Source of the DNA: Strigamia acuminata
Taxonomy: Eukaryota
NCBI GenBank assembly: GCA_949358305.1
Contig: OX442314.1
Coordinates: 32,364,001 to 32,428,000 of the forward strand
DNA: 64,000 bases
Direction of reading: 5' to 3'
Shown here: in pieces, positions 39,375 to 64,000 of the stretch
Layout of the letters: every line of letters begins with the position of its first letter
How positions within the stretch are numbered: the stretch's first letter is position 1
Made by a program: the position numbers and the translations under genes
The notes under the pieces: generated by a model
Told to the model about the DNA's origin: nothing
Seen by the model: only the letters and a program-made list of their open reading frames with translations
The model's database searches: none

Positions 39375-39615
39375 ACACATCGCCGACCCTTCCACCTTAG
39401 CCCGTGCTGGATTCAAATACTTGGGTGAAAATGATCATGTTGAGTGCGTCTACTGTCTCGGTCGATTAAAAGAGTGGAAACGTGGTGACATACCTCTTTT
39501 GGAACATTATTCTTGGTATGCCTATTGTCCATTAATGAGAATTACTTTTGAAAAAGGACTGAATGAAGAGTGGTTGATTTATAAATCCATCTATGGGTTA
39601 GATACACCAGGTTGA
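39289..39615 (+). CDS. Single-BIR inhibitor-of-apoptosis-like protein
   Basis: RKQTFRNWP, LARAGF, CVYC-x16-H-x6-C; no RING domain; overlaps the end of the upstream ORF. Confidence 0.9.
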   Translation: MEREMKMRTEMMRRIRERKQTFRNWPVSRHIADPSTLARAGFKYLGENDHVECVYCLGRLKEWKRGDIPLLEHYSWYAYCPLMRITFEKGLNEEWLIYKSIYGLDTPG

Positions 39616-39644
39616 TAGAAACACCAGATTTTGTAACAATTACT

Positions 39645-40169: not shown

Positions 40170-40177
40170 AGCTTGAG

Positions 40178-41515: not shown

Positions 41516-41517
41516 GG

Positions 41518-42000: not shown

Positions 42001-42004
42001 CTTG

Positions 42005-43135: not shown

Positions 43136-43188
43136 GCCTGCTCACTTCTGATTGCATCATTGAGGTGACATCACCTCTTATATGAACA

Positions 43189-43788
43189 ATGTTTCATCAT
43201 CCATTTACTGCTATTATTTCTGGAAGTTCGGGTACGGGCAAAACGGAGATATGTAAGAAAATTATCCGAAATGCGAGTAAAATGATTGATCCACCCCCAC
43301 AAGATATTTGCTGGTACTATTCAATATGGCAACAGTGGTATATCGAATTTCCCAATGTGCAGTTCCACGAAGGATTACCCAATTTAAAGACTTTGGATTC
43401 ATCAACGAGAAAGCTTTTCATCATTGACGATCAAATGGAAAATTTAAATCAAGAGATTGGGTTATTGTGGACTAAATATTCGCACCATACGAGCACTAGT
43501 GTATTTTATTTATGCCAAAACATATTTCATCAAAGCAAATATCAACGAACTTTATCTTTAAATAGTCACTATTTAATCCTTTTTCGAAATCCAAGGGATA
43601 TGAATCAAATCGCAAAAGTAGGGAGTCAAATGTTCCCACAGCGAGGTAAATTTTTCATGTCAGCATTTAACGATGCAACAGCGCAAAGTTTTGGGTATTT
43701 ATTAATTGATTTGAAACCGGATACACCCCAAGATCAAAGAGTGAAGACTAATATATTTCCGGATGAATATACTATAGTTTACATATAG
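43189..43788 (+). CDS. FtsK/A32-like genome-packaging ATPase
   Basis: Walker A GSSGTGKT, Walker B LFIIDD, SHH..Q motif. Confidence 0.93.
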   Translation: MFHHPFTAIISGSSGTGKTEICKKIIRNASKMIDPPPQDICWYYSIWQQWYIEFPNVQFHEGLPNLKTLDSSTRKLFIIDDQMENLNQEIGLLWTKYSHHTSTSVFYLCQNIFHQSKYQRTLSLNSHYLILFRNPRDMNQIAKVGSQMFPQRGKFFMSAFNDATAQSFGYLLIDLKPDTPQDQRVKTNIFPDEYTIVYI

Positions 43789-43797
43789 ATTCCACCA

Positions 43798-44133
43798 ATG
43801 AAACGAGTAAGACGTCACGCCAATGTGCTCCGGGCCATTCCCGATTTAAATAAGAGACAAATCAAGGATTTTCTCAAACATTCTAACGATGATTTCTGTA
43901 AAACCATCTGTGAAATTTGTTTAAACATTATAAAAGGTACAATTAAGTTAGGAGCAAATCAGAAACAATCACTTTATCGAAAGAGAAGGTTGTTAAGAAA
44001 ATTGGCCACTCCTACATCTTCATTCAAACAAAGACGGAACTTGGTCATTCAAACTGGTGGATTTTTACCGCAACTACTCGCCCCAATTATTGGAGCATTA
44101 GTAGGTAAACTAATTAGTAAACAAAATGGCTAG
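43798..44133 (+). CDS. Small basic Maverick protein of unknown function
   Basis: CEICLNIIKG, basic middle region, QTGGFLP followed by a hydrophobic tail. Confidence 0.75.
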   Translation: MKRVRRHANVLRAIPDLNKRQIKDFLKHSNDDFCKTICEICLNIIKGTIKLGANQKQSLYRKRRLLRKLATPTSSFKQRRNLVIQTGGFLPQLLAPIIGALVGKLISKQNG

Positions 44134-45016
44134 GAAAATGGTTTTAGTACCGCAGGAAATGATGTCATCTTTACAATATTCGAAAAAGAACTATGATGAT
44201 ATTGATCCGCAATATCAAAAATTGCAAAAGATTGAATCGTCAATAGAGGAAATTTTCAATGATGCAAACTTGAATGATGAAATGAAAGCTAAACTTATAT
44301 CGACACTTCAATCGCAATTTGGAAACTTTAAACAAAAGCTAATTAAACAATTAAATGCACCAAAAACTGTTACTATATCACCTCCAACTCAATCCGCATC
44401 TCCACCTCAATCACCACCACCAATTGTTTCGCACTTATCCACATCTCAATCGCCATTTGTTCTTCAACCATTGGATAAAATAATGTTGAATAAAATGTCA
44501 AAAGATCAAAAGAAACAAGCTATTGCGTTAATGGAAGTTATGAATTTGAATCCAAGGTTGAAATGGAGCAATCTATCGGAAATGATTATAGATGGAGTAA
44601 AAATTCCAAATACAACCAAAGCTGATCTTATAAACTATACCATAAGAAACCGCCCGAAGCAAAATGTAATTCCGATTGGTCAGTCAGAGTATATTAAAAT
44701 TTTGATTGATTCAAATGTACCAAAAGAATACATTATAAACAAGAATTTAAGAAAGGAATTAATTAGACCGATGAGCACTTCAACTCCCACAATTACTAGG
44801 GACATTCATAGAGAGTCATTGAGTGGAAATGACTCCATCATCAATAATCAAACACTATCAGATCAAGATCAAGAGCTGTCAGACTTAGAGAACACTTGGG
44901 CACATTACGGAACACCAAACAAATCTTTAAGATTTCAACGAGATCAAGACGAGAGTTTATTCAAATATAAAACACCAAGTTCCGGTTCACAAAAAAGAAA
45001 AAAAATAAAGAAATAA
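44126..45016 (+). CDS. Maverick protein of unknown function
   Basis: 296-aa ORF between the ATPase cluster and integrase; coiled-coil N-terminus, C-terminal basic NLS. Confidence 0.75.
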   Translation: MARKMVLVPQEMMSSLQYSKKNYDDIDPQYQKLQKIESSIEEIFNDANLNDEMKAKLISTLQSQFGNFKQKLIKQLNAPKTVTISPPTQSASPPQSPPPIVSHLSTSQSPFVLQPLDKIMLNKMSKDQKKQAIALMEVMNLNPRLKWSNLSEMIIDGVKIPNTTKADLINYTIRNRPKQNVIPIGQSEYIKILIDSNVPKEYIINKNLRKELIRPMSTSTPTITRDIHRESLSGNDSIINNQTLSDQDQELSDLENTWAHYGTPNKSLRFQRDQDESLFKYKTPSSGSQKRKKIKK

Positions 45017-45056
45017 ACAGTATAACTAGGAGCATAGAACAAAGTTAGAAAAACAT

Positions 45057-46151
45057 ATGGCAGAGCAACAATTGAAAGATATCTACTTTAATCCAAGAAA
45101 TCCTGCCGGATTTAGTAGTCGAGATAAATTGTTTCATGCTGCACGTAATCGAGGGATACAAGTTACCAGAAAAGAAATTCAAGATTGGTTACAAGGATTA
45201 GATTCTTATACTTTACATAAACCAGTCCGATACAAGTTTCAACGCTCCAAGACTATTGTACCATCCATTAATTACCAATGGCAATCGGATTTGGTTGAAG
45301 TTGGAAACATAGCAAAGGAAAATGATGGAAATAGATATTTAATGACCGTCATTGATGTATTTTCACGATATGCGTATATTGAAGCATTACCAACAAAGTC
45401 TGCGCAACATATTATAAAAGCTTTTAAAACAATTCTAAAACGTGCCAAGACTAAACCCCTCTACCTGCAGACGGATAAGGGAAAAGAATACTTAAACAAA
45501 GCATTTCAGGAATTCTTACAGAAAAATAACATCAAACATTTTACTAGTGAAAATGATGATATTAAATGTTCACTTTGTGAAAGATTGAATCGAACCATAA
45601 AGCAGAAAATGTGGACTTATTTCACATATACCGGCAGACATCGATATATTGATCAACTGCAAACATTTATAGATTCATATAATCATAGCGTTCATCGAAC
45701 ATTAGGAATGAAACCTGTTGATGTTACGAAAGAGAAAGAACCGGCAGTGTTTTACCACTTATATGGTGATACAATAAATAAAAGACATAAGAAATTTAAG
45801 TTTAATATTGGTGATGGTGTTAGAATATCAAAATCTAAAGTGGTTTTCCGAAAGGGATACAGGGGAAGCTATTCGCATCAAATTTATTATATTATCAATC
45901 GATTAATCCGACCACCAGAAGTTGTCTATATGCTTAAAGATTACAATGATGAACCTTTACTCGGTACATTTTATGAATTTGAGTTGCAGAAAATTAATAA
46001 ACCCAAGGATGCGGAGTATGCTGTAGAAACAGTATTAAAGTCTAAAGGCAAAGGTGCGAATAAATTATATTTTGTAAAGTGGATGGGTTATGGAGATGAA
46101 TTTAATTCCTGGATTCCCGCTGATGACTTACGAGACAACCCACCATTATAA
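45057..46151 (+). CDS. int: Retroviral-like DDE integrase with C-terminal chromodomain
   Basis: WQSDL, IDVFSR, QTDKGKEY, CERLNRTIK; chromodomain YAVETVL...YFVKWMGY...NSWIP. Confidence 0.95.
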   Translation: MAEQQLKDIYFNPRNPAGFSSRDKLFHAARNRGIQVTRKEIQDWLQGLDSYTLHKPVRYKFQRSKTIVPSINYQWQSDLVEVGNIAKENDGNRYLMTVIDVFSRYAYIEALPTKSAQHIIKAFKTILKRAKTKPLYLQTDKGKEYLNKAFQEFLQKNNIKHFTSENDDIKCSLCERLNRTIKQKMWTYFTYTGRHRYIDQLQTFIDSYNHSVHRTLGMKPVDVTKEKEPAVFYHLYGDTINKRHKKFKFNIGDGVRISKSKVVFRKGYRGSYSHQIYYIINRLIRPPEVVYMLKDYNDEPLLGTFYEFELQKINKPKDAEYAVETVLKSKGKGANKLYFVKWMGYGDEFNSWIPADDLRDNPPL

Positions 46152-46207
46152 TTTGTATACACACATAAATAATAAAGATATATTTCGATCATTGCATATG
46201 CACTTGT

Positions 46208-46594
46208 TTATTTAACAATAGTTACATTCGAATGGAGAAAAGAGATTGCTCGAGTTAATCTAATCCATTGATACCAATTTAAATTAATTCCTTTGATGGA
46301 TGGACCAGCTCTGCTAAACTGTCTGATATCAAATATTACATCATCTCCACGTTTGCAAATATTTAGTTGTTTTCCATTTCCTAGATCAAAAGTGGAATTG
46401 CATCCATTGGATACAGGCAACATTTTCACTACATCCACAGTTGGTTGGATTAAGGTTGGAGGAGAGTACATCAGAATCATGATTTGTAGAATAACGATAC
46501 AACATCCAACAACAGAGAAACTTCCAGTCGTAATCCATAATTTATGATTTTCAAATAAGAGCATCAGGTTTTTCTGTAATCCTGCTCTGTCCAT
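46208..46594 (-). CDS. PC4-like domain protein with an N-terminal hydrophobic helix
   Basis: FDLGNGKQLNI...VIFDIRQF...PSIKGINLNWYQWIRL (PC4 pattern) preceded by FSVVGCCIVILQIMILMY. Confidence 0.7.
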   Translation of the reverse strand: MDRAGLQKNLMLLFENHKLWITTGSFSVVGCCIVILQIMILMYSPPTLIQPTVDVVKMLPVSNGCNSTFDLGNGKQLNICKRGDDVIFDIRQFSRAGPSIKGINLNWYQWIRLTRAISFLHSNVTIVK

Positions 46595-46774
46595 GGTTTG
46601 TGAAAGAATGACACGATAATATATATAATAATGGTTTTATTTTATAAAAATAATAATAATAATAATAATAATTTCATTTACAAAATAAATTACATGATAA
46701 GATAATGATATAATAATAATAAAAATATGTAACAGTTTTGTTTACAAAATAAATAAATAAATAAATAACACTTT

Positions 46775-49700
46775 TTACAAAATAATATTGTAATGCCCAT
46801 GAGCTAGAGTCGTTACACCATCACTCAAAATGTACCTTTTATCATCTCCAGCAGACAAAGCAATTTTCTTTTGCAAAATTGTATATAATTCGTGATCGAA
46901 AGAGCGAATTTGATTTGATGAACGTGCGTTTTCTATTTTGTTGAATAGACACTCTTTGTAGTCTTTGTGGCGAAGTTGATTTCGCACACTTCGAGGTACA
47001 CCTTTTGCTGTCTTTTTTTCTTGATCTTTTGTTTTAAACGAATACATTTTACATCGAAGTCCGAGAAATTCCTGTATGCATTTCCCGGACATTTCGTCTT
47101 TAAACTTTCCAATTACCTTTTTATTCTTTGTGCTGTATAGGGAGTGTGTGGAAGGATAATCTGAAGTGTCGAATTTTTCTAAATCTTTTTTCATGTCTGC
47201 ATAAATATCATCTGTTTCGATATTATACGTTAAACTATCCGTATCAGTAAAAAGCAACCTGGCTTTGTTCCCATATGTTTTTTTGATATGATTATAATGA
47301 AAATCATACATAAGGACTTTGCTAAGTTCTAGAATGCAAAAGCCCACGTATATGGGTCTATTTAATAGGATATTTCTTTTCTTTAAATGTACACCTACAA
47401 GATCTTCATTGAAAATCTTGAACTCGTGAAAAGTTGGTGAATTTAATAATTTAGTCACTCGCTCTGGATTTTGCACCAACCTCACATCAACACGTTTCCT
47501 GACGGATTCGAGCGACTTCCCAAAAACACTATTATTCATCAATTTGAAGAAGTCCTTTTGAAAACTATTGGTTGCTTGTTTTCGCAACTCTGTATTTAAG
47601 CCAATGTACTTTGCAAGCCAATCAGATTGTTCAAATTCCAGAATTTTATGAATTTTCGTGACTTTCATTCCCAATTTCAAATACAATTGGAGGTTTTGGT
47701 AGTGGATAATATATTTTGTTTTGTTAGCAAGGTTAGGAACTAATTTGGGAGATGGGTGATGTTTTTGTTCTAGTAGGGTAAGGTGTTCGAGACTGTAGGG
47801 TGATAACATGTTTTCAGTTACTGTTAGTCGTTCGGGAGCAAGAGGATAATCGTTATGGGAATCATGGAGTTCTTTGGGATATTCTAAATCTACTTCCAAA
47901 ATATACCCCTTTGTGCTGGTTTCACTAATGCTTAACACATCAAAATCATCGGTGGGCGGTATCCATTTGAAATTATGAGTTGGTAAATATTGGTTCATTG
48001 CCCAGCCGTACAAGTTATTCGCATCGAGATAGATGATGTGATTGGATGGAAGGTCCTCTTTATAATCATCTAAATCTTTGTGATTGGCTTTAGCAAATCG
48101 ATGGCTAATCATTGATATACCACCGCGAATACCATTTTCAATAAAAACATGCATAAGCGGATCCGTTAACAGTTCTAATTTGACATCCGTTAGTTTCAGA
48201 CATGCCCCCCACGAGAGACCGGGTGTTGTGAAATAATTACAACAATCCAATTTATAAGTCTCTAAACAAATCGATCGAAAATTTTCAAAGACGTCAGCTA
48301 GCAGCAAAACGTCAGTCAAAACATAAAGGTCTTGATAAACACCGAGATTTTGGATATTGAATTTATCCCACACTTTCTTTGCATGAATATAGTCAGATTC
48401 GGATACACTTTGCTCACTTAGAGTACTGTAAAATTCGGATATGGGAGGAAGTTGGACTTCGTTGAATTTGATCCAAGAGTCCATGTACTCATATGGAAAA
48501 ATACCTTTCCGTAATAACAATCCGATTTCATCAGGATTGAAATGTTGATTCATTATTCGGAATTGGTTTGGATCACTTTTGAATAAATTAGCTACTAATG
48601 ATTCTAATGATGCATTCATAAATTGCAGACTATCGAGAAATCGAAGATTTCCGAGTGAAAAAGTAATATATCGTTGCATGTTGGTTGGAATACAGCTTAT
48701 TTCACGATCTTTATACTTTCCAATTCCCTGCATTAATAAATGTGAATCATAATTTTTTAAGTTATGAAACACAACAGGAATTTGTTTAGATGTTCTGCGA
48801 TACATCAGATTACAAAAATTATGAGCAGGGCCACGGAACTTGCCAGTAGCATGATCATGGTCCCTTACTTTCTTTTCATTTTTTAAAAATGTTTTATTAC
48901 AAATGTGACAAGATGTAGCACTTTCCATAAACAATTTTTCTTCATTCGATAAATCCATTGGAAGATTTAAAGCCATAAGCTTTTCCAACTCTACTTCCAA
49001 TTTAGTAATATGATCAAGAAAATGATCAACTGCATTTTCACCTCGATATACCGATGGAGGTTGGTGAAGTTTACCTTCTGTATTGATAACAGCATAAGCA
49101 TAACCCGATGGTACGTGCTTGGACACTTTTTGCACTTTGCTTGTCTCATCTTTTTCAACATTTTTAACGAGCAGTGACTCAAAATCCGCATATATAACAA
49201 ATGGGACTTTAAATTGTTTATGGAAATCATTAAAGTGCATCCATTTTGTTTCATCGGTGGGGTATTTAACTTTTTGAAGCCCGTAGGTTGAGCAATACTC
49301 CAAGTGATCTTTTAGTATCCGTTCTGACGAACATCTATGCAGACAATATTTACAATAGTGAGCTAATTCATTGTGATGTGTTAAGGAATGTAACAGTTTA
49401 TTTATATTTTTAATCCAACAATAATGTTGGGTTTGATCATTAGCAAAAAGTAACAAATTTATTTGGGTTTTATGTTCCAATTTGCTAATGTATAGGGGAA
49501 ACACTTCTTTTTCGAAACCGAACACATGAACACTAATAGAATTCATGGTTTCAAACTTGGGGATTTGTTGAAGAGTCATTGGGAATGAAAGTCCGGTTAA
49601 ATCTAAAGTGTTTCGGTACTTGGTATAATGTGAAACACGTTCAGGGTGGGAAGGTGCAGGATGCAGAGCAGCTAAAACACTCCAGAGAAAACACAAAGAA

Positions 49701-51199
49701 TCTTGATTTTGTACATTTATTATTGCTTTTTTGTCTGCTAAAAATTTGGGGAGTGCGATGTAAGATCTTCCAGCCAATGGGCGATATCTACCAATATTCA
49801 CATGCATCTCTACCACCGCTTCAAATACCCAACCACTACCATCTCGTTGAAATTCGGCGCAAGAACGTTTAATTTTCTCGTATGCCTCCAATAATTGGTT
49901 CTCGAGATCCGATTCAACAAGCGCAATATAGCAAATGCTTCGAAAACATGCAATGGTTTCCGTATCACCACTCTGTGATGATCGAGTGAAATGTATTTTA
50001 ACGGCGATATAATATTTTACCGCTTTCTTTTTAATCAATTGGAAGTTTAAAATCCGTTTCACTCGAGTGTGGTGTTGAATGAAAAAATGATTTAAATCAC
50101 CACAATCATCACCGGGAATTTTATACGTGTTGACGTTTCCCTCTAATGCGTCAACACAAGGATCATCGCAGGGTAGTGGTTGTGGATGTGGAACGGCGGG
50201 TAAAGGAAGAATGTGAACTTGCATGTGTTTAAGTAAATTATTATTTGAAGAAAAAGACTTTTTGCAAACATTGCAAGTAACTGTCTCTTTGCTGCGATTG
50301 TGAATATTTTTAACATGTCGCAGCATGTCATCTTTACGCTTAAACATATTTGAACATATTCCACACTTGAATGTGCTTTTGGAAAGAGTATGTAAATGAA
50401 GAATATGTCGTTTCAAAGTAGAATTACAAGAAAAATTTTTTTTGCAGTACTCACATGAATGTACTTTCTGTCCACCGCCAATTTGTTGCATTAAAGTCAT
50501 AGGAGATGGGGGATTGACGATGCGGCTTGTTCCTGCTTGCTGCAAATTTGGTTGGTAGTGGTACACAGGAACTGAAGACTCACACGATATCGATAGATTG
50601 CACGATTGAGATGAGGCAGGTTCAGATTGATTGTCGCAGGTTGGAGTTGGCACGAGTTGAGATTGGATGACGTAGGATGGAGATGGTACATGTTGAGACG
50701 GAATGATGATGGTGGGTGGTGAGAGTGGATAAATTGGAGAATGATTATAAATCCATGGAGAATCATTGTATCCATTTTCTTCATCCGGTAGAGGATTGGG
50801 TGTGTTAACTTGAGGAAATAGAGATTCTTCAATTTCTGTAAGCATCTCTTCAAATTCACAAATATTATGTTGCACCACTTGATTATGGATTTGATGGTTA
50901 ATCATGAGAGGAACGGGAGACTCACATGATGTCAATGGATTGCAAGATTGAGATGATGCAGGTTGAGATTGGAAGACGCAGGTTGGAGATTGCACGTGTT
51001 GAGAGTGGTTGATGATGGTAGGCGATGAGAGTGGATAAATCGGAGAATGATTGTAAATCCAACATGGAGAATCATTGGATCCATTTTCTTCATCATCAAC
51101 ATCTAGCAGTGGATTAGGCGTGTTTATAGGAGGAAAGAGAGATTCTTCAATCTCCATAAACAACTCTTCAAATTCAGACTGAATGTGGTTAAATTCCAT
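46775..51199 (-). CDS. polB: Protein-primed family B DNA polymerase with N-terminal repeats, three C2H2 fingers and an endonuclease VII-like insert
   Basis: YADFES (ExoI), FHNLKNYD (ExoII), DANNLYG, KLMNNSVFGK, TDTDS; DHDH..G..RG..H..CN insert; TATA and CCAAT positions favour ATG 51199 over 51271. Confidence 0.96.
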   Translation of the reverse strand: MEFNHIQSEFEELFMEIEESLFPPINTPNPLLDVDDEENGSNDSPCWIYNHSPIYPLSSPTIINHSQHVQSPTCVFQSQPASSQSCNPLTSCESPVPLMINHQIHNQVVQHNICEFEEMLTEIEESLFPQVNTPNPLPDEENGYNDSPWIYNHSPIYPLSPPTIIIPSQHVPSPSYVIQSQLVPTPTCDNQSEPASSQSCNLSISCESSVPVYHYQPNLQQAGTSRIVNPPSPMTLMQQIGGGQKVHSCEYCKKNFSCNSTLKRHILHLHTLSKSTFKCGICSNMFKRKDDMLRHVKNIHNRSKETVTCNVCKKSFSSNNNLLKHMQVHILPLPAVPHPQPLPCDDPCVDALEGNVNTYKIPGDDCGDLNHFFIQHHTRVKRILNFQLIKKKAVKYYIAVKIHFTRSSQSGDTETIACFRSICYIALVESDLENQLLEAYEKIKRSCAEFQRDGSGWVFEAVVEMHVNIGRYRPLAGRSYIALPKFLADKKAIINVQNQDSLCFLWSVLAALHPAPSHPERVSHYTKYRNTLDLTGLSFPMTLQQIPKFETMNSISVHVFGFEKEVFPLYISKLEHKTQINLLLFANDQTQHYCWIKNINKLLHSLTHHNELAHYCKYCLHRCSSERILKDHLEYCSTYGLQKVKYPTDETKWMHFNDFHKQFKVPFVIYADFESLLVKNVEKDETSKVQKVSKHVPSGYAYAVINTEGKLHQPPSVYRGENAVDHFLDHITKLEVELEKLMALNLPMDLSNEEKLFMESATSCHICNKTFLKNEKKVRDHDHATGKFRGPAHNFCNLMYRRTSKQIPVVFHNLKNYDSHLLMQGIGKYKDREISCIPTNMQRYITFSLGNLRFLDSLQFMNASLESLVANLFKSDPNQFRIMNQHFNPDEIGLLLRKGIFPYEYMDSWIKFNEVQLPPISEFYSTLSEQSVSESDYIHAKKVWDKFNIQNLGVYQDLYVLTDVLLLADVFENFRSICLETYKLDCCNYFTTPGLSWGACLKLTDVKLELLTDPLMHVFIENGIRGGISMISHRFAKANHKDLDDYKEDLPSNHIIYLDANNLYGWAMNQYLPTHNFKWIPPTDDFDVLSISETSTKGYILEVDLEYPKELHDSHNDYPLAPERLTVTENMLSPYSLEHLTLLEQKHHPSPKLVPNLANKTKYIIHYQNLQLYLKLGMKVTKIHKILEFEQSDWLAKYIGLNTELRKQATNSFQKDFFKLMNNSVFGKSLESVRKRVDVRLVQNPERVTKLLNSPTFHEFKIFNEDLVGVHLKKRNILLNRPIYVGFCILELSKVLMYDFHYNHIKKTYGNKARLLFTDTDSLTYNIETDDIYADMKKDLEKFDTSDYPSTHSLYSTKNKKVIGKFKDEMSGKCIQEFLGLRCKMYSFKTKDQEKKTAKGVPRSVRNQLRHKDYKECLFNKIENARSSNQIRSFDHELYTILQKKIALSAGDDKRYILSDGVTTLAHGHYNIIL

Positions 51200-51301
51200 G
51201 ATACAAACAGAACCTAGCACTTGCAAGAAGTGAAGAGAAGAGAGAAGGGAATTGCAAGTATATATAGCCATTACTAGTTACTCATTGGTTAAGATAACTA
51301 C

Positions 51302-51737
51302 CCAATAATATCCCTCCTTTGGTTAAAAGTAGCCTAAGGATCCTTTGAAAATTTGGGAAAAACAACAACAAGGTACTTAAGTAAAGAAAAACAAGGGTCC
51401 TTTGAAAATTTGGGAAAAACAACAACAAGGTACTTAAGTAAAGAAAAACAAGGGTCCTTTGGAAAAAACAACAACAAGGTACTTAAGTAAAGAAAAACAT
51501 TAACAAATAATAGCCTAGGGCACATTGATTGAATGATAAGACTGATTGATTGAAGCAATTAGTCACCCCCACTTAGCTCTCCCCTTATCTCCCCCTCTCC
51601 TTATCTCCCCCTCCTCTTATCTCCCCCTCCCCTTATCTTCCCCTCCCCTTATCTCCCCCCCACTTAACCCTCACCACCCCCTCCCCCACCCCCCTAACCG
51701 TCAACCGCTGGCCCAGGATCCCCATAAACCCACTACT
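51302..51737 (-). repeat. Polinton right TIR (436 bp)
   Basis: Reverse complement of 36203-36639. Confidence 0.95.
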
Positions 51738-52833
51738 GATTCTTATTTGAATAGAAAGTTTTGAGGAGGTAAAGATCTAATCATCATTCTAGTTATATTT
51801 GTCGACCGACTGCCATGAATGTGTGACTGGTAAGGTCTTCTCCATGGCAGCCTGGGGACTGGTTACCGTGGGGTGGGAAGCATACTCACTTAAATAAGAC
51901 AAGAAACTCCAGATTGTTGGTTGTTGGCCTTTATTAGTTTCGTTGTTTAGGGGTTGGAGACTCCCATCTACCCACACGTGGGTGTTGTTGCGAAAGCACT
52001 TTTTTCTAGTTCTAATTCTAACAGTACACACTTGTTTTACATTTTAAAATGAATCATTATTTCAGCTTGCCCAGTATTCTTTCTCATCAATTGAAAACAA
52101 AGTGTTGATGTTTGTCATCAAGGAAACACGTGGAACTCAAAATCTAAAGCATGATCTAGATTTGCCCGTATTACAGGATCTCATCATATGGAGAGAGAAT
52201 AAAGTTTACTTATTCACATATGCTCAACACAGTAATGTATGAGTCAATAGTTAAAGCATTATTAACAGTATGTTTGCAGAATGTTCATTTTGTTCTTAAT
52301 TAACACCGTTTATTTCAACACATCTAAAAGTACATGGTGTATCCAAATCTGCTCGTTTAAAACGATACAGGGTCATTAATTGATGACACCAAAATGAAAA
52401 CCACCGTTACGGATTAAAGATTGGTGCAATTTTTGTCTACAAAGATTAGCATTCACTATATTTGATTTTTAAAATATATTAACTACATATAATTTAAAAT
52501 AAGGAAGTTTATTTATACTGTTCATATTTTTTAATCTGATATTACAGAATTTTAGCTTGCAGTTATTGAAACATAAGTCTGATGGTAACATTTTTCAAAC
52601 AACCAACTTGGGGATAAATTGTGCGGAACAACAAAAATGTCAATTTGAAAAGATTTCTCAAACACCAGTGATTCTGAAAAAACAAAATTATACTGTAGCC
52701 CAGGTAAAGCATGCTACTACAATTTAAATAGTAATTATAAATAATATTGCATGGCAGATTTATGGGGACAACTAATAGGGAGGAGGTAAATCTGAATGGT
52801 GCAAGTGTGTCACGAAAGGTCCAGTGTAAATCT

Positions 52834-53905
52834 TGCGGCGATCCGGGTTTTTACTTAATAAATCGAGGAGACTTATCAAGCAATCGTCGTAGAGATGCCG
52901 TACAGGACTTCTACTCTGTGGCCAAATGTTTGTCTAGGGGAATGATTTTACACAGAGTAAAGGAAAAATTAGATAGTTTTAATTAGTTCTAAATATACAC
53001 GGATATGATGCAAAAGAATAATGTTTGGGGTCGATCTGGCTTCTTCTTCACTAATATAAACTCACAGTTGACCGTTGGTTCCAAGATGGCGTCGACGGCG
53101 TCGTGTGAGCGCGGAATTTTAGCGGAGTAAACTCAACGCTAAAATACGCCTCTAAATATACTAAAATCCTCGCGGAGCAAGCTCAACACGAGAATACGTC
53201 TCACACACAGTGAAGGTGATTATTACGGAGCAAGCTCGACGTAACAATCAGTCTTTACACAGATCGCTTTGTGGAGTTAAACTCGACACAAAGCCTTCAA
53301 ATTGACAGAGCAAGCTCAATGTCAATTCCACACAGAAATGGCTTAAATTACGCGTAGTAATTCAAGCAGAAAGGCGCTATTCCGTACAGTTGGCACGGAC
53401 CAGCAATGAATCTCAACTCTTCCAGATATCACAGATCACACTTAGCAGGGTTTGGCATAAGTTTGACACAGATGTGAATGGTTTGGAAGCAGAATCAAGA
53501 ATGTCGGAAGAGTGGGCCAAAACCGTTTGGCTCACTCCTAAATCTGCTCAGTAAAGCTGCACAGATGACGAGTTGCACAACGATCACACACGGCCGCCTT
53601 CGGGTCGTGTGCAACAATTGAGCCGGGCACGCGCGAGGGGAAGGGATGCTCCGCCCAGGCACACGCCTAGCAGCATCATCAAAGCAATGCACGCTGCAGC
53701 GCGATTGGTTGACGCTGTTGCTGGGCCAAAACTTGCTGCAAAACACAATATTATTTGGGTAATATGGTGTCTTGTTTTATATTTGATTAATATATATTTT
53801 ATTTCAATTTACATTGAAACAAAACATATAAGCTTGTTGAATATGTTTATACGACAATTTGGAAATATGGTGCGTACTCAAATAGGAATATTTGAGGTCA
53901 CCACA
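52834..53905 (-). repeat. Gypsy 3' LTR (1072 bp)
   Basis: Minus strand begins TGTGGTGACC right after PPT AAAAGGGGGGGAAG and ends GATCGCCGCA where block-B homology resumes. Confidence 0.88.
53116..53327 (-). other. Array of five bulged RNA hairpins within the LTR
   Basis: Five different 8-11 bp lower stems each enclose UY-bulge-GAG-loop-CUC; mismatches resolve as G-U pairs on the minus strand. Confidence 0.8.
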
Positions 53906-54077
53906 CTTCCCCCCCTTTTAAGAAAGAATCCTATTCTTTTCCAAAAGAGACAGGTAAGTATGAAAATAAATACACAAGGTTTCAAAGTAAAATGGAACAG
54001 GATATATATTTATTCTTTTTTATTACAATATAAAAATAAAAAAGGAATTATTTTTAATGGACGGGTATGTTCCCTAA

Positions 54078-56915
54078 TTATTTAGGCAACATGTCCGTCG
54101 AATGATCATTTGGATCCTTGTGCTCTGTGACGGTGCACAAAGATCGGCCGGCGTTCGGTCCTGACTGGAAGCCAGTGTTGATGTGAAGCCACACTTGCTT
54201 AATGTGTCTCACACCATCCCTTCGTCCAAACCCCATTTCGAAATACTCTTGCGGGTCTTTCGGCGTGATCCTGGCAAAAACGAGACGTTGATGGAGGATC
54301 CACGGCTGTTGCTCCTTGATGTGATTCTCCAACCACGCGAGGACTCGGTTGCAGAGATCCTCGTTGTTCTGGAGAATCGTCTTCGTTGCACTCGTGATGT
54401 AGCAGAAGGCGTATACCGAGCGCAAGCGTTGATAGGCGGTGAGGTAGGTGGTCATACTCAATCCCCTATCTCTCGGCGGCGAATCCTTTGGCGGTGGCGG
54501 TGGTGGCGGCGACTTTTTGCAGATCGAGAGGGATCTGGATCTGCGCGAAGCCGGGGCGCGCGTCTTTGGTCTGGCACCGCTGGCCACAGGCACGACGAAC
54601 TCGCGATCGTCGCTGTCGAGCGACTCCATTGGAGACGAGATGTTGCTACTCGGTGCCTCGGTTGCACGGGAAACACTCGACGTTGCCGTGATGGCAGCGT
54701 GGAGTGGAGCTGCGGATGACGGTGGTGCGCCAGCGGGACGTGCGGTAGCTCGTTCCGCTGCGCGTCGCTGCTTCAGCGTAGCCCATTCCTGCCGTAGTCG
54801 AATGGCGGATCCAGCCGGAGTTTCGCCAGTCGCCTCGGCTTGTTGCGTCAATTCGGCGAGCATCGTTGGAGGATCGGGGCGAACTGACTCCCAATCGTCC
54901 AGCAAGGCTCATGGAAGCCCTAACGGCACGGTCCACAATCGGGTGGCGGCCGCCAGAGCCATTCGTAGGTCAGGAAAGACTCCTTGGAACAGGATTCTAA
55001 GTAGTCCTTCCGACAGCTTCCTGTGCATCTTCTGCAACATTCGTTGCAGTTGCTTGTCGGACTTGCACGACTCCAACTCTCGGGCAAGCCATTGCCATTC
55101 CTTCTCACCTTCGCGGATCTGAGCGAGCTGGTATTCGTCCAGATGCGCGAGGTACATCGTTTGGGCTGTCTCGGGAAACGATGAGAATCGCCTCCAGAGA
55201 TCAGCGCACTCCTGTGCGGGAAATGGTTCCGGAGAGATGTGTGATCCCTCAAAACGAATGACCGATGTCACTTGTGGCACGGGCACTGATGGGTCTGGTC
55301 GCATGTCGCTGGTGACTGGACGGCAAGCGAACGGCAAAGAGGTGTTGACGTCTCCTTGACCGGCTTGCAATGCGGCGATGCGTCGATCTTCTTTCGCTAT
55401 CTCGTCCGACCAGTCAATCCGGCCGGAGGAGGAAGCGCTCAGCTGTGAAGCGTTGGATCTTTCTTCACGCGACGAGAGTGAACTCCTCGTGGAAGATTGG
55501 CGCGATTGCACTCGAGGTCGGCTTCGGGATGTGGGTCTCGACACGGACTTCGAATGTCTTTTTGGTGGCGTTGACTCGCGTCGATGATGCGAGCGATGAC
55601 GAGTCTTTTGAAGTGGAGGTAACCCTCCAATGGCGCCTTCCCCCGACGACTGTGTTGGGGAGGAGCGACGGCCACTGTAGGGCGATCTCGATGATCGTGA
55701 CCTCGACGTGGAGCGCGGTGGCACCACGTGGATGGTGGATGCGATTGGTACCCGTGGCTCGGGCTCTGGGTACGGGTTCGGCACGAAGTCAGCATGGAAA
55801 CATCCGCCCATGGCTAGTTGATGCATCTCCGATTGGCATGTCGGCACCCAACGTCTCCTTCCGTCCGTGGTTGGCCGGAAAGATTCGTGGTAGAGGCGCA
55901 CAACCTCGGCCTTGGTTTGATCAAGACGTTGGAAAATGTCCTCCAAAATCTGTCGACGCTCCCACGCAGGAGCGTTGAAATAACGGCGATGGTCTCGCGT
56001 TTCTTGAGCGATCACTACGAAGGCGAAGTCGAGCAACACGTTTCGTAGTGGTCCGAAGGTGTCGCGCTTCATTGCCCACTCGAGGGCGTCGCGATGACCG
56101 AATCCATCGATTAAATAGGCGATTCGAAACTTCGTTCCCCATCGCTTGTTTAAGGCTCTGGAGAATTTGTGGCGGGCCGCCCAAAACGTCAGTCGTCCTT
56201 TAGACTTTATTATTTCTGGCGGCAAAGCGTGTCGCCAGACGCCAGGATCGGTCGGAACATCGGGGTGCAGCTCGAGATGCGTCTCCCGAAGCTGGATGAT
56301 CTGTAAAATATTCGAAGAAATAATTAAAATCCATTTTTTCGTGTAAAATAATTATTTTCCGAATTTTCAGTGAATAAAATCACAGTGAGATTTCATTCGA
56401 CAGTTTAGATTCGTTAAATTTTTCAAAATGTTTGAAAAATCGTGAAAAACGTTGTTTCCGACGGCTATGTTTCAATGTTGGAGCGTTACCGTAGCAACGC
56501 CTCAAAAATGAGACACAGCGCCATCTGATGATAAAAATGGCGGCGCCTTCTTGCGAAGGCGTTACCAACGAACTTTTCGCTTTTTCCGAGTGAAAATGCA
56601 CTTTTAATTACTTTTCATGACTGAAAGGTAATTTTATTTTAAATTATTTACCCGTTCGTGTCTCTGTGCACGAGTTTTGCCGTTTGGATCGGCGAATAGG
56701 CCTCCTCGTAGTCGGGGCTGAGACGGCGTGATTGGCAAACGGGCAGCAGCGTCGGCCAGAGCGGCTTGAGCTTCGGCGGACGCTTCGGCGGATTCTTCGG
56801 TGACATCCACGGATGCATTCGAAGTGTTTGCGGAACCAAGCAACGTCGAATTTGTTTCTAATTCGAGGCTGTTGGCGCCGGCTTCGCTTCCTTCTTTCGG
56901 TTCCTCTTCTTCCAT
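54078..56915 (-). CDS. Spliced accessory gene of the Gypsy (Arg/Ser-rich, not env), with one in-frame TGA
   Basis: Exon 56915-56652 (88 codons), GT-AG intron 56651-56301, exon from 56300 in frame with ORF 56225-54909, TGA 54911-54909, same frame continues to 54078. Confidence 0.75.
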
Positions 56916-57125
56916 TTGAACGACTAATCCAAATGGAAAAGAAAAACGAAAATTAATTTATTAGTTTTTCCTTGGAAAATTCCAAAGAAAAAACTACTTA
57001 CAATTGAAGAATCCCGTTGAAATAATCCAGTTGTTTCGCTTTTGGTTTTTTGGAGATGAGCACTTAGCACACGTGTGAGATCGAAGTGAACTCAGACGCG
57101 AAGTGATCCGTTCAAATACCGGAAG

Positions 57126-60100
57126 TTACGTTTGGGTAACGTCGTTGTTAGCGACGTCATCCAATCTTATCGTTTGATTGGTTTGCGTATGGCTTGGGGA
57201 ATTGCTCCTTACGTCATACGGCTGATCCTTGGATCTCGAGGTTATCGAGGGGAGAAGACACATGTTGTTTTTTCCTCTCGGTTTACGAGTCCGAAGATTA
57301 TATCTCTTTGTCGGCGAGGGATTTATTGTATTTAAATCGCCGTCTTCATTGTCATCGGAGACTGAGTCAGATGAGTCTTTTATTTCAGATGTTTTTTGTT
57401 TCTTTTCTAAAAACACCTTTTTATTTAATTTTTTAGCAATTTCAAGCTTTTTGAAACTGTCACGAAGTTCAACGTCGTTATTCACGAGGTCTGACTCCAT
57501 TTGTGGTTTGGATGAATTATCGACAGGTATTTTCTTTAATTCATCGTCATCTAACGTATTAATTATATTTTCAGTCTTTTGACCGACTTCTTCGCCTTCT
57601 AACCATACTTCCTGATCGAAACTCGGGAAATACGGAGTTAATTCCGACGAATGGACAGCTGGAAATATTTCGTTATTCTCTAGCTTTCTCAATTCTACGG
57701 ATCCTCCCTGTAATACTTTGGTTATTACATAAGGTCCTGTTCTTTTATCAGCGATGCCAGCTGCAATGCCGCGGGCAGCGCTCGACAAAACATGAGAATC
57801 TCTCCAAACTAAATCGTTTAATTTAAAATTGGAGAACTTCGCACCTTCTTTTTTAAGATTAACTCGTCTACGCAAATCTAACACGTGTGACATCATGTGT
57901 TGATATGTTTCGGCGATAACGGCTTCTAATTTTTGCACGTATAAATGTGGGTTTTTTGGATCTACGACCAAAATTCCTTCAGGTATTCTTGGATCCCAAG
58001 GTACTCTGAGTTTGCGAAAAAAGTTAAGAAATGCGGGAGAGAAGTCTCTTCCTCTCGTCACCGTAGTTCTCAAACTAAATGCAAATTCACGCAAATATTC
58101 GTCCCATTTGGAATGAACAGATGAATAAATTGCAACCAAATATTTGATGTCACGGTTAACCCTTTCAACCGGGTTAGCTTGTGGGTGTTGGAACCATCTT
58201 GAACTTTTCACAAAATTTTTTAAAGACTTGGGCACGAAATTGCGGGCCGTTGTCAGAAATAATTTTGCGAGGAAATCCCATGCTCATGGAAAGGTGATAA
58301 ATGCAATTTGCTACTTTTCCTGCAGTGGGGTTACACATTGGATATAATTCTGGCCAATGAGTCGCCACGTCAAGTATGACTAAAATGTGTGTGTTGTTTT
58401 TTTGTGTCCGAGGTTTCGGGCCAGTTAAATCAACACTTAGGCAGTCAAATGGGCTGTAAGGACCCATTTGCGCTGCTTCAATTTGTCCTTTCGTTCGAGG
58501 CTTGCAAGCTTGACAACGCTCGCAATGTCGAATGAATCTCGTGATGTCAGATTTCATGCCTTTCCAGGTATAAATTCGGCGTGCTCGATAAAGAGTCCTT
58601 GCAATTCCTGGGTGGCCAGAAAGTGGGTGGCCATGCATCAGCCAAATAATTTTATACTTCAATGTCTGAGGTACAAAAACTTTGAGTGCTCTCCCATCCT
58701 CCCCCAATTCATCAGACATTGTGGGATGAAATTGCATTAATAAGTCATCTTCAATTAAGAAGGTGGTTGCGTGTTTTCTATATTGTTTCCTCTGGAGTCG
58801 CGTTGTGACGTCAGGCGGAAATTGATTACAATTTAAAAAATTACGCATTAATTGGCAAACTTTATCTTCTTTTTGGGCCTTGATTATGTCTTCCCTTGTG
58901 GGGGGTTCACAATCAAGACGCTCTATAATTTTGGCGACAAATGCTTTTATTAAAACATTTGACGAAGGAATTTGAAATTTCCTTGAAATTTGCGCTCTTA
59001 TGACATCATCTGATTCTTCAGAGGGGTCATAAATTTTAGTCCAATAGTTGACGAATTCGTGATCTTCCTTTTCCTCTAATGTGGAGACAGGAAGCTCATG
59101 GAATTTTCCCATTTTCCAATTTCGTTGTGGTGATGGACAATAAGATAATAATTCGTCATTATCTCCATCATCTTCAGGATTTTCCGGTTTATCAATCGGT
59201 GATCTGGATAAAGCATCCGCTAAAACATTTAGTGGACCTTTAATATATTGTATTTCGAAAGAGTAGCGCATCAGCTCCATTTGCCAACGCGCTAGCCTTC
59301 CGGCAGGTTCGTCTAACTGCATCAACCATTTTAGTGCTTGATGGTCAGTCCTAACTATGAATGTGGTAAATTCCAAATAATGTCGGAATTTACATAATGC
59401 CCAGATTACCGCAAGGCATTCTAATTCTGTGGCGCTGTAATTTATCTCAGCAGGTTGCAAACTTCTGCTGGCATAAACACAAGGCACTTCAATATTTTGA
59501 TCATCGATTTCCCTCATTTGCATAAGCGCGGCGCCTAGTCCTTTTCTGCTGGCGTCGGTATGCACAATAAATGGTTCTGTCAAATCAGGCATGGCCATTG
59601 TTTCTGCATTCGTTAGAGCATCTTTTATTTGATCAAAAGCTTCTTGATGAATTTCTGACCAAATAAATTCCACATCCTTTTTGAGTAAAGGACGTAGAGG
59701 TTCCGTCATGACTGCTAGATTCTTGAGTAATCGGTGAAAAAAGTTCACCATTCCCAAAAATCTTTGCAACTCTTTCAAATTTGAAGGAGCTGGCATTTCT
59801 TTAATGGCGGCGACTTTTTTAGGGTCGACACTAACTCCTTGAACACTTAACTTGTAACCAAGGAAAGTTAATTCTTTTCTGCCAAATTTCGATTTTTCTG
59901 GATGAACATGAAGATTTGCATTTTCAAGTTTACCTAGAATTTCTTCCAGATGCATCATGTGTTCTTCAAAATTTTTTGATATTATAATTATATCATCGAG
60001 GTATGCCCATGCGAATTTTCGATAGGCGTCCCCCAAAATCTTTTCTATCAACTTTTGAAAAGTTGACGGCGCATTTACGAGATCAAAGGGCATGACTCGA

Positions 60101-61587
60101 AATTGTAGTCGACCCAAAGGGCTCCAAAACGCAGTTTTAGCACGGTCGTTCGGATGAACCTCTATCTGCCAATAGCCTTTTGACAAATCTATCGTTGTGA
60201 CCCATTCAAATCTTCCGAGTTCTCGCAAGATTTCCTCAATGCTGGGCATTTGAGGAGGGTCGTATAATGTATGTGCATTGAGTGGTCTAAAATCAATGCA
60301 GAGTCTCGGATCACAATCCGGACGCATCACTAGAACTATTCGCATTCCATAGTCTCCAGTGGCTTGCTCAACATACCCATTATCCAACATATCTTGACAG
60401 ATTTGACGGATAATTTCACGTTTTTGTGGATTTACGCTTTTAAACGGAACTCTAATAGGAACTTTAGTGTCCAGTTTAATTTCATGTCTAACGAGGTGTG
60501 TTCTACCTGGTCGGCGTGATAAAATCTTTTCATGTTTCTTTAATACTCTTTCAAGCATTAAATTATTTTCCATCGACAAATTAGCGTCGCTAACAAGTCT
60601 TTGTACTACATTTTCTTCATCGGCAACTTTAGCTTGACATGCAGTGGCGGAACCAGCTTTCATGTGATTTGCTTTAATAAAGTCGCGTTTCATTACTTCT
60701 TCGGGTGGATCAAGGAACTCTTGATAACGATCAAGAATCGCTTGAGGAACAAAAGGTAAATCTTCTTTCAAAGTCTTAACAAAATTCCAAGACATGGTCT
60801 TAGGATTTGGTTGAATATTGAGTCCATTCATGAAATCACATCCTAATAAAATAATAGGATATTTATTTCTTAAAATTATGAATGGATGACTTAACATCCC
60901 GTGTGTCCACGCAAAAGAAAGTAGGAGAGTTCCTTCGGGGACTACATCTTCTGAAGCAGTCGTAACTCTCACATCCGGTCCAATTGGTCGAATTTCATCT
61001 TCCAGTTTCAGCGAAATTACTACGGAGTAGGCCATGAAGCTTCGATTAGCTCCAGAGTCTAACATCCCTGTTATCATACCGTTTGCCGTCTGCAATCGAA
61101 TCGTCGGCAAATCATTGCTGTTTGGTATGTCCGCGTACTTGCACTTAAAACGTCGCGGTGGCTTAATTTCTATCGGCGAATCCAATGGTAATTCGTCCAA
61201 TAAATCATTAGTGACTAGCGTTGTAGCCATTAATTTTTCAATACAATCGTCAAGACCAGGTAAATCAATTTTATCTGACCTTTCAACAATTTCAGGTGTT
61301 GGCCTAGCTTTTCCATCTAGCAAAGTAACAGCATCTTTTATTTTAGATTCCCAATCAACTTTTAATTGTTGAACTTTTTCTTTAAAAAATTCTTCAGTGA
61401 TGTTTTCATTTTGCAGCACAAGCCTTAAACTGGAAACATCAATTTTTGGAAATATTAAATTATTTTCGATTTCTAATTTAATCTGAGTATTCAAAAATTC
61501 ATCTAAAATTTGAGATGGTGTTAGTTCATTTTCCGAGGCGGTAGGCGTCGCATCCACTAGACCGTCTGGATGCGCGCTTACAAGATT
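57126..61587 (-). pseudogene. pol: Gypsy pol (protease, RT, RNase H, integrase) with a frameshift in integrase
   Basis: LDSGA, YLDD, TDAS..E..TDH, H-H-C-C, DLTGP, SDNGPQF; HPQANPVER and GPY lie in another frame from about 58200. Confidence 0.92.
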
Positions 61588-62714
61588 TTAGAAGTTCGCC
61601 GATTGATTTCATCGATTTCTCGAACTCTTCTATAATCTTGTCTTTGCTCGATTTCCTTTCAGGACATTCTTTAGCCCAATGTCCCAATTTTTTGCAGATG
61701 TTACACGGGTCAGTAGCAGGTGATTTCGCGACTTTTGGCGAAGGCGAACTTGAACGTTTGGCTTCGTCCTTTTTAGGGGTCGGTGACTTCGATCTACTGA
61801 GCGCGTCCGTCTTTGGTGAACCAAAAGTAACGTTTTTAGGCGCCATCTTTGGTCCAAATTTTCTTGCTACTGCGTTATTACGGGCTAATAATGCAGCTGC
61901 CGCTTCACTTTCTGGCTCCGAGTCAGATTTTTCTGGTTCAGAAGCAGTTTCCATTTCGGTCACTTCAGCTAAGTGAGCTTTAGGGGTTGGATGAGGATTT
62001 TTTCCATCCGATCCCTTTTTCGATTCCTTGGCAGTCTCTGCAAAAAAATCTCCTCGTTTTGGGGGTTGCAAAAGAGGGGTATTAGCAAAACGTATATCTT
62101 TTGCCAACTCCTTTCTCCGTTGCTGTCGCTTAGCGTACGCAACTTTTTCATCAGCTGGTAAGTAAGCTTTGTAATTTTCGTCAATCCTTATCTGATTGGC
62201 TCGCATAAATTTGGCTAATTCCGCGAAACCACCCGGATAAGGTGCTCGTACAGAAAGTAGAACATTTTTTGAATAATCGGTCAATCCACGACGGAATTAA
62301 CGATCAATGGCTGCGTCTCCCATCGTATAAGGGAGAGTTACCAATAAATCTTCAGTCCTTCTTAAATAAGAGCGAAGACTTTCGCCTTTATTTTGAGAAA
62401 GATTATCCCACATTTGTAATAAGTCTTCACTTGACTCTCCATACTCAGTCATGAATTCTTCTACAAAGTAATTCCAATTTTGAAATTGTTTAGAATAAAA
62501 CCATTTCTCAGCTCGATCTATAAGAGCTTTTGGTACTACTCTTTTCAAAGCAGTGTGACATGCAATGCCATTCAACCTTGAAATTCGTAAAACTTCATCT
62601 AAAAGAGTGGATCCAGCTTCCCATTCTCCATCGAATAAAGCGGGTTTAATGTGATCCCATCTAATAGTTCTTTCATCAACTAGATCGTGAGTCCAGTTGT
62701 TGGCAGTGTATTGT
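61526..62714 (-). pseudogene. gag: Gypsy gag, interrupted
   Basis: Capsid-like A.KWF...W..F...F and Q..GES...Y; CNICKKLGHWAKEC knuckle; in-frame TAA at 62299-62297; cut at 62714. Confidence 0.85.
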
Positions 62715-64000
62715 TGTGAGGTCATACGTTGACCTCACGTTGCGCGCGACCTGGCGCCGAGGCGAACACCTGCCACGCGGCGCACCTGTCGGTGTTGATT
62801 GATGACGTCGGGACGGGACAGCCAATGGAAGACCTCGTTTTATTTTTATTTTCGGAAAATCGATTTGTTTACCTCTGAATTTGTAAAAGCCGAATAAAGT
62901 TAGTTTTTGTGCACATTTTGAACCTAGACAGTCGCAAATTCCTTGTCGCTTGCTCTCTCATCGCTGACATGGCGCAGTCGACAGCTTAGGACCCGGCGGA
63001 CGCGTGAACGTCGTCGCTGCGTGAGAGAGCTCGTTGGATTTTCGTTGGATTTTCGAGCCGCAACCGAAAATACGAAAATTGCCGTGCGTGGGCGTGAGGA
63101 AGGAAAACTCGGGACATAAAATGGCGGATATGAAAGGTGTGTTAACTTCGATTTGCGAGCCGGTTTTGGACCTTTTAACATGCGAAAACATTCGCGACGA
63201 GTGTTTGTTACGGGGAATCGACGTAACCAACTGCAAAAAGAAGAGCGAATTTTTGGCCACAATCTTGGCGGACAATGTGGCAAAAGATACAGCCAAGGTC
63301 AACCCCGGGTCAACCCAGTCGGCCATTGTGGCGACTGCGGCGGGACTCGCCGGACAGATCAAAGTGCAGCACGAGGTGGACACGACGAAGGGAGTGCCCG
63401 TGTTTAAGGGAAAACGTGACGAGAACGTTGAACATTTCATCGAGTGCGTCGAGCGTGCGGCCACGTTGGGAAAATGGACCGAGCACGCAAAAATTGCGGT
63501 GGCAAACGGACAATTGAAGGAGGAAGCTCTGTATTGGTATGACATTTTTGGGAAAAAACTCGTTTTGTGGTCGGAGTGGGTGGCGTCAATTAGGGACTAT
63601 TTTTTGGACGTCGACACCTATGACAGGTGGAGGCAGCGAATCGCCGCAAGAAAGCAGCTGGAGAACGAGTCCCTCGCCACATATTTTGCCGCAAAAATCG
63701 CGTTGATCGAGACAACAAGGAAGGCGTTCAGTTTCTCGAAGGACGACACGATAAATGTCACAATAGAGGGAGTTCGCGATTTGCACACTCGTGATTTATT
63801 TCGCATGTCAAAATTTGATTCTTTTATCGAATTAATTAGGAAGGGACGCGAGATTGACCGGAACAGAGAGGCCATCGAGTCACCACCGAGGACGACACCA
63901 AAAGAGACCGCGAAGCCAAATATCGAGGCCCGGACAAGGACACCACGCGATGAAACGTCATATAAAAAGGGCATGGACATGTCAAAAATGCAATGTTGGC
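62715..64000 (+). mobile_element. Second Gypsy (5' LTR, PBS, gag start) nested in opposite orientation in the first element's gag
   Basis: TG..CA LTR 62715-62969 with AATAAA; PBS TGGCGCAGTCGACAG 62970-62984. Confidence 0.85.
63121..64000 (+). CDS. gag: Gypsy Gag, open to the window end (not in the ORF track)
   Basis: MADMK...VPVFKGKRDENVEHFIECVE...LKEEALYWY...RKQLENESLATYF..., ending MQCW (likely start of a zinc knuckle). Confidence 0.88.
   Translation, partial: MADMKGVLTSICEPVLDLLTCENIRDECLLRGIDVTNCKKKSEFLATILADNVAKDTAKVNPGSTQSAIVATAAGLAGQIKVQHEVDTTKGVPVFKGKRDENVEHFIECVERAATLGKWTEHAKIAVANGQLKEEALYWYDIFGKKLVLWSEWVASIRDYFLDVDTYDRWRQRIAARKQLENESLATYFAAKIALIETTRKAFSFSKDDTINVTIEGVRDLHTRDLFRMSKFDSFIELIRKGREIDRNREAIESPPRTTPKETAKPNIEARTRTPRDETSYKKGMDMSKMQCW

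Follow-up and report, generated by a model that had tools for sequence, protein, structure and literature searches.

An array of five hairpins with a TAR-like core in the LTR of a Gypsy retrotransposon, and a candidate accessory protein that may read it

The 3' LTR of a Gypsy retrotransposon in a 64,000-nt stretch of Strigamia acuminata DNA (contig OX442314.1, positions 32,364,001 to 32,428,000; hereafter the window) holds a real, selected and unusually clean array of RNA motifs with a TAR-like core, seen in one family under one species label. We see close to, though slightly under, an even chance that this Gypsy element independently evolved the TAR pocket in five copies and that an unrelated orphan accessory protein reads them in a feedback switch of the Tat/TAR or Rex/RexRE type outside the retroviruses. 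Our preferred reading, to which we give a probability of roughly 0.35, is that the array consists of selected folds with a TAR core to which the spliced accessory protein would bind, controlling unspliced RNA in the manner of Rex, Rev or CERV. Such protein-on-RNA switches, exemplified by Tat/TAR and Rev/RRE, are regarded as hallmarks of complex retroviruses.

Results and Discussion

Element and family copies

The coding and terminal parts of the element in the window are the following.

61526..62734, minus strand: gag, with Retrotrans_gag and zf-CCHC; an in-frame stop in the window copy
57126..61587, minus strand: pol (PR-RT-RH-IN), with a frameshift within the integrase in the window copy
56652..56915, minus strand: predicted first coding exon of the accessory gene, 88 codons, with an acidic N-terminus and a phase-0 GT donor
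54078..56300, minus strand: main exon of the accessory gene, 740 codons, with an in-frame stop at 54909-54911 in the window copy
53906..53919, minus strand: polypurine tract, directly upstream of the LTR
52834..53905, minus strand: 3' LTR, 1072 bp, TG...CA, with an imperfect terminal inverted repeat

The domain order PR-RT-RH-IN, the upstream gag and the TG...CA LTR behind a polypurine tract are Ty3/Gypsy features, and the array lies inside the LTR, which bears out its earlier assignment to a Gypsy LTR. The pol product is at most 48% identical to the closest proteins among the 120 matches listed, which come mostly from animals or from unnamed assemblies. The window copy is defective: both gag and the accessory ORF are interrupted by stops, and the integrase is frameshifted. 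Other copies differ at those places. The 5' end of the element, with the 5' LTR and the primer site, is outside the window. At 52834, the end of the LTR, contig depth rises and contigs stop or continue dissimilarly; the flank matches another repeat within the window.

Copies were followed in three sequencing runs from two studies under one species label. These place 872, 369 and 177 contigs on 601 bp of the LTR, defining a multi-copy family. At the other side of the element, summed contig depth drops about 5- to 7-fold beyond 62887, and a gag-like-looking ORF without a Pfam match runs on the opposite strand from 63025 to the window end. One contig of run X2, with a depth of 1038, spans 62768-63128; judging from it, a head-to-head junction near 62887 may exist in several copies.

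Hairpin anatomy and pairing

The array occupies LTR positions 539-790 and is composed of six hairpins.

53341..53367, minus strand: HP0, plain hairpin of 11 bp with a 5-nt loop and one G-U
53300..53327, minus strand: HP1, stem of 8 bp, A-U below a UU bulge, GAG/CUC, CUUG loop
53266..53294, minus strand: HP2, stem of 8 bp, G-C below a UC bulge, 5-nt loop
53217..53250, minus strand: HP3, stem of 11 bp (one G-U), UC bulge, CUUG loop
53166..53195, minus strand: HP4, stem of 9 bp (two G-U), UU bulge, CUUG loop
53116..53145, minus strand: HP5, stem of 9 bp, UU bulge, UUUA loop

A first-pass annotation, made from the letters, had proposed five bulged hairpins and a plain sixth on the minus strand; all of them are present, and both the MFE and the centroid structure contain HP0-HP5 as drawn. 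Read on the sense strand, HP1-HP5 follow a common plan, comprising a purine pair, a U-Y bulge, GAG/CUC and a small loop. The pair below the bulge is G-C in four of the five, and the upper stem reads GAGC/GCUC in three. The sequence gCUUGc is a stable tetraloop (PMC10401711, available in part), and G-CUUG-C ends three of the five hairpins as had been proposed, whereas the other two carry UUUA and UUUAA; a pyrimidine-UU-purine loop is therefore conserved, the exact CUUG word is not.

Single contigs in each of the three runs omit HP2-HP3 (53196-53299), and another omits HP2-HP5 (53095-53299). The joints fall at hairpin ends, and the shorter side covers 21-22 letters. Copies may differ in how many hairpins they carry, or the paralogous hairpins may have been mis-registered in the contigs.

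The lower stems differ in sequence and nevertheless all pair, as the first-pass annotation had stated. When the count is anchored on the hairpin core and includes HP1-HP5, all 40 of the 40 cells in the first eight lower-stem pairs are standard pairs, against 27.6 +/- 2.2 expected with shuffled 3' partners (0/100,000), while the stem arms have just 1-5 of 8 bases in common between hairpins. Among the four hairpins whose loops are equally long, both sides have changed in 7 of 12 pairs, including the closing pair of the UU loop (C-G or U-A); the three pairs above the bulge are invariant, and slid-register controls pair at 37-55%. HP2 is excluded from this second count because MAFFT set its 3' arm out of register, and its pairing was assessed by the core-anchored count instead. 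Since the hairpins are paralogues in one LTR, the covariation is not across species: the earlier description of the hairpins as covarying applies between paralogous members of a single LTR and does not extend further. No related element appeared in the collections searched, so the covariation is that of one family.

Hairpins of this kind are rare. Dinucleotide-shuffled LTRs (n = 5,000) contain a mean of 0.0004 and a maximum of one, and a scan of both strands of the window outside the array gives one looser match. A model built from four hairpins recovers the held-out HP2 at 27.1 bits (E 1.9e-5), and its top match outside the array within the window reaches 15.0 bits. Pattern scans for the hairpin words gave 69 + 1 viral, 2 metagenome and 3 prokaryote loci, none with lower stems. 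These 75 loci, chosen for core words, reach no more than 18.3 bits, the lower stems being absent from them; compared with them, core word and lower stem co-occur only in the array. No similarity to the element was seen among the 71 hairpin-word loci compared, and searches of viral contigs with the RT and the accessory N-terminal domain as queries found no relatives of the element. Rfam returned five matches with E values of 2.8-5.8, none of them TAR and all far under the gathering score.

The family copies also indicate that the hairpins are maintained. The best-supported 40 of 97 substitution rows, 18 of which (17 positions) fall within 53116-53367, place polymorphisms at 2 of 147 stem or core positions versus 15 of 105 linker, loop and second-bulge positions (p 6e-5; p 0.02 with clustered linker changes merged) and none in the invariant core; these rows are the best-supported only, and short contigs of paralogous hairpins may be misplaced. 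The two stem changes are mild, one being at a terminal pair and one from U-A to U-G, and both common bulge variants retain a pyrimidine. In loose ends of more diverged copies, compared by eye with one arm visible, HP1 and HP2 retain the bulge and the core but carry the other loop type, and the 5' arm of HP1 differs. Selection on the hairpin fold is thus supported.

Strand

The non-Watson-Crick pairs in the stems as listed are four G-U and no A-C on the minus strand, in agreement with the claim that mismatches are G-U only on that strand. Such a split has a chance of about 1/16, so that the support for the strand is real but modest. Three hairpins fold better as the minus strand; the other three have perfect Watson-Crick stems and equal energy on either strand. 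The minus-strand fold has a z-score of -4.92, with 0 of 200 shuffles equally stable, and the shuffle z-scores show no preference for this strand, the plus strand giving -6.03. The strand supported by the G-U pairs is the direction of gag and pol, and we infer that the array very probably folds as sense-strand RNA.

The near-equivalence of the two strands, both in the significance of the plus-strand fold against its own shuffles and in the three of six hairpins with perfect stems, would also suit repeats that act as DNA, either as factor sites or as ssDNA hairpins in reverse transcription, or that are functionless by-products of template switching, a process that can perfect inverted repeats. 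We regard this explanation as very improbable. Template switching would erase the 2-nt bulge, yet it is present in all five hairpins, and a site acting as double-stranded DNA would have no need of stems that vary in sequence. That every non-Watson-Crick pair is a G-U on the sense strand and that polymorphisms avoid the core argue in the same direction.

Comparison with TAR and 7SK RNA

In HIV, TAR sits in R, at the extreme 5' end of the transcript, its apical hexaloop is the Cyclin T1 contact, and Tat has a dense arginine motif and a Cys-rich domain. The TAR pocket itself is built on the pair before the bulge (A22-U40) as its base, with U23 forming a triple with A27-U38, with G26-C39, A27-U38 and G28-C37 as the pairs above the bulge, and with arginine contacting G26 and G28 (PMC6189040, available in part). 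The same elements, namely a purine Watson-Crick pair, a U-led pyrimidine bulge and G-C/A-U/G-C, are found in five of five hairpins, so the suggested likeness to the core of HIV TAR, i.e. the arginine-sandwich core, stands on comparison with HIV-1 and HIV-2 TAR (PMC6189040). Location in an LTR and, in three of five hairpins, the GAGC/GCUC upper stem are further common features. In contrast to TAR, there are five copies with a 2-nt bulge, the host is a Gypsy retrotransposon, the loops are CUUG, UUUA or UUUAA instead of the hexaloop, the pair below the bulge is G-C in four of five, Rfam gives no match, and the element has no Tat-like protein, lacking both a dense Arg motif and a Cys cluster. The resemblance of the fold to TAR thus covers the pocket core and not the apical hexaloop, which is absent. 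Both the U.A-U triple and the arginine pocket would be allowed by sequence and secondary structure. Judged from these features, the array is not a member of the TAR family and would work like TAR at the motif level only.

The array probably has a protein ligand, and this could be a host protein. The arginine sandwich is a host motif as well, occurring in 7SK (PMC6189040). Like SL1 of 7SK, which holds the HEXIM sites, the array has several pyrimidine-bulge pockets per RNA, with a UU bulge and a U.A-U cap, but the pockets of the array are on separate hairpins, and the A.U below the UU bulge in pseudo-ASM3 of 7SK is replaced by G-C in four of five hairpins (PMC6189040). In 7SK, a G-C at this place gives a pre-formed pocket to which HEXIM no longer binds (PMC6189040), which makes a 7SK/HEXIM decoy unlikely. 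More generally, a host RNA-binding protein might read the array for export, stability, translation or as a 7SK-like decoy, with the accessory protein acting elsewhere. This reading is helped by the fact that the link between accessory protein and array is a proposed one, and by a weak BEN-domain match (E 0.16) in the accessory protein, which would suggest DNA binding if real. Against it, the array matches no Rfam family; we consider a host reader rather improbable. If a host protein does bind, the array would show that a retrotransposon has hijacked an arginine-pocket reader.

Accessory gene

The accessory gene is located between pol and the 3' LTR. The AG acceptor of its main exon is in frame with the upstream 88-codon exon that ends in GT, forming a predicted GT-AG intron. 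In one of four runs, X1, a single contig connects 56652 directly with 56300 at the GT-AG boundaries, its shorter side being 27 letters long; coming from a run of unrecorded kind, it is no more than a hint at the splice joint. Another short candidate GT-AG intron, which has a strong pyrimidine tract and contains a 12-bp U/A-rich hairpin, occupies 56924-57001 on the minus strand, immediately ahead of the accessory ATG. To judge from these signals, the gene may be served by an internal promoter, or its mRNA may include an additional leader exon.

Residues 186-295 of the main exon contain 18% Arg and 29% Ser, with a net charge of +19 and 17 RS/SR steps. A dense Arg motif of the Tat/Rev type is found in none of the long sense ORFs, where at most 4 Arg occur in 10 residues, and the main exon has no Cys cluster, its 9 Cys being scattered over 740 residues. 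The Arg-rich accessory gene of the first-pass annotation is therefore retained as a gene with an Arg/Ser-rich region, without the motifs of Tat or Rev. Matches to the export-signal pattern are at chance level (6 versus 5.0 in shuffles). Residues 155-169 of the main exon have a C-x4-H-x6-C-x-H spacing that could bind zinc, and the weak BEN-domain match lies just ahead.

Database searches identified no relative of the protein. No homologue was present among the best ~8,000 candidates from 5.8 billion proteins, nor among 1.84 billion representatives with the first 463 residues as query. Pfam assigned no family, with weak matches to BEN and Bcl-2 (E 0.16 each), and the best match among solved structures in the PDB had an E value of 0.47. 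Single-sequence models of the N- and C-terminal domains are poor (pLDDT 49 and 55), and fold searches with them gave nothing clear (best Z 6.4 and 5.8); several HPF/pY ribosome-binding folds matched the C-terminal model at Z 4-5, within background.

Regulatory words in the LTR

The following words are arranged around the array.

53651..53708, minus strand: CCAAT box (53708) and GC box (53656), where a GC-rich stretch begins
53083..53090, minus strand: GCCATCTT, directly after the array, which we take to be a YY1/Pho-like word
53060..53065, minus strand: splice-donor-like GTGAGT, predicted by motif scan, 51 nt behind HP5
52978..52983, minus strand: predicted poly(A) signal ATTAAA, with a U/GU-rich tract behind

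Among LTRs, ATTAAA is documented as a variant poly(A) signal (PMC2664473, available in part). Because the array is upstream of this signal, it is expected in RNA that ends in the 3' LTR, whatever the start site. The CCAAT/GC stretch is predicted as a candidate TATA-less promoter upstream of the array, and the promoter words together with the donor word make it moderately probable that the array is also at the RNA 5' end. No variant occurs within the GTGAGT word in the best-supported 40 of 97 substitution rows, and indels and substitutions begin directly behind it.

Several other signals were considered. TATA-like words at 53058 and 52997 are weak as promoters behind the array, as these stretches differ among copies, and the one at 53160 is weak because transcription would begin inside HP5. 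A 76-nt intron from the GTGAGT word to the AG at 52989 was rejected since most aligned contigs differ at the AG. Further hairpins occur in the upstream LTR: 53510-53537 is a near-perfect 28-nt palindrome whose sense strand has an A-C mismatch, and 53786-53905, near the LTR start, contains AU-rich folds (z -3.5 and -6.1).

This arrangement bears on a Tat/TAR-like circuit, in which the array would be in R and be made first, and the accessory protein would recruit elongation factors for positive feedback on transcription. The CCAAT and GC boxes precede the array by 290-340 nt and no well-conserved TATA word follows it, while the donor-like word could work only with a start site upstream. The TAR core in five of five hairpins and the GAGC/GCUC upper stem in three are in accordance with such a circuit, as is the fact that stem-loops early in R are common among retroviral LTRs (PMC2664473). 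Against this, the TAR hexaloop is absent, the accessory protein has neither a Cys cluster nor a dense basic motif, and the position of the array at LTR 539-790 would imply a long R of 450-650 nt. We therefore hold this circuit to be unlikely.

A role as repeated signals for packaging or dimerisation, recognised by Gag, is less likely still. Repeated small hairpins serve as packaging signals in RNA viruses, and the Gag of this element has a CCHC knuckle and a basic patch. However, spliced RNA would carry an LTR site as well, so that such a site offers no means of choosing the genome; the loops are short and lack self-complementarity, and the hairpin model finds no further copies inside the element.

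Splicing and export

Rev and Rex RNA elements are formed by one large folded domain, and Cer1, the element that carries CERV, is of the Gypsy type. RexRE of HTLV-1 is a stem-loop in the 3' LTR, and Rex binding blocks splicing and drives export (PMC12789967, available in part). Similarly to Rex/RexRE, Rev/RRE and Rem/RmRE, the present element is predicted to have a structured LTR RNA in its 3'-LTR transcripts, and it encodes a candidate spliced regulatory protein with basic regions (PMC12789967). It differs from these systems in that the array consists of small independent hairpins, and that the accessory protein, whose predicted exons would together encode about 830 residues, has no dense Arg motif and no export signal above chance. 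CERV of Cer1 in C. elegans is a novel multi-domain protein, with G and M domains, that is made from spliced mRNA and needed for export of unspliced RNA, a precedent for Rev-like export control outside retroviruses (PMC10309623, available in part). The window likewise contains an LTR retrotransposon with a novel multi-domain protein, here from a predicted spliced mRNA, but its accessory protein has no homologue found and its gene is between pol and the 3' LTR. The available part of the CERV account (PMC10309623) names no RNA element, whereas the candidate RNA element described here is explicit, short, five-fold and equipped with a TAR pocket.

In our preferred, Rex/Rev/CERV-like reading, the five hairpins would form repeated arginine-binding pockets in the LTR RNA, and the accessory protein, made from spliced RNA, might bind all five through arginines. 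Once bound, it would multimerise and damp the neighbouring donor, so that splicing is restrained and more of the unspliced genomic RNA is exported, by analogy with Rex/RexRE or CERV. Since the accessory gene contains a predicted intron, the element would need a means of getting its unspliced RNA exported. Like RexRE (PMC12789967), the array would be part of 3'-LTR RNA regardless of the start site, and unspliced RNA of Cer1 is exported via CERV (PMC10309623); both points favour this reading by analogy, and the donor-like word 51 nt behind the array and the Arg/Ser-rich region at residues 186-295 are features of the sequence that would fit it. Against it are the expected presence of the array in spliced and unspliced RNA equally, the protein without a dense Arg motif and with export patterns at chance, and the five separate small hairpins as opposed to the single large domain of Rev and Rex elements.

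Overall, a Rev/Rex-like reading seems to fit the anatomy somewhat better than a Tat-like one. In the former, the controlled step would be splicing or export, not elongation. We put the accessory protein as reader of the array, by either of the two viral-type routes, at even odds. If it does bind, the element would have reached the TAR fold convergently, and the protein would stand for a new family of RNA-binding proteins. As the candidate element is short and repeated, it is testable with 30-nt RNAs and protein fragments. A literature search of limited coverage found no report of a TAR-like hairpin array in any LTR retrotransposon.

Other elements in the window

Two further mobile elements are present. 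A copia-type element at ~24500-31240 has a 1614-codon ORF, and its LTR copies are identical over the 300 bases compared, which indicates recent insertion; the hairpin model finds no hairpins of the array type in these LTRs. A Polinton/Maverick-like element extends over ~36200-51740 between long terminal inverted repeats (36203-36648 and 51293-51737). From their translations, its ORFs appear to be DNA polymerase-, integrase-, ATPase-, capsid-, protease-, AlkB- and BIR-like, and two others are PC4-like.
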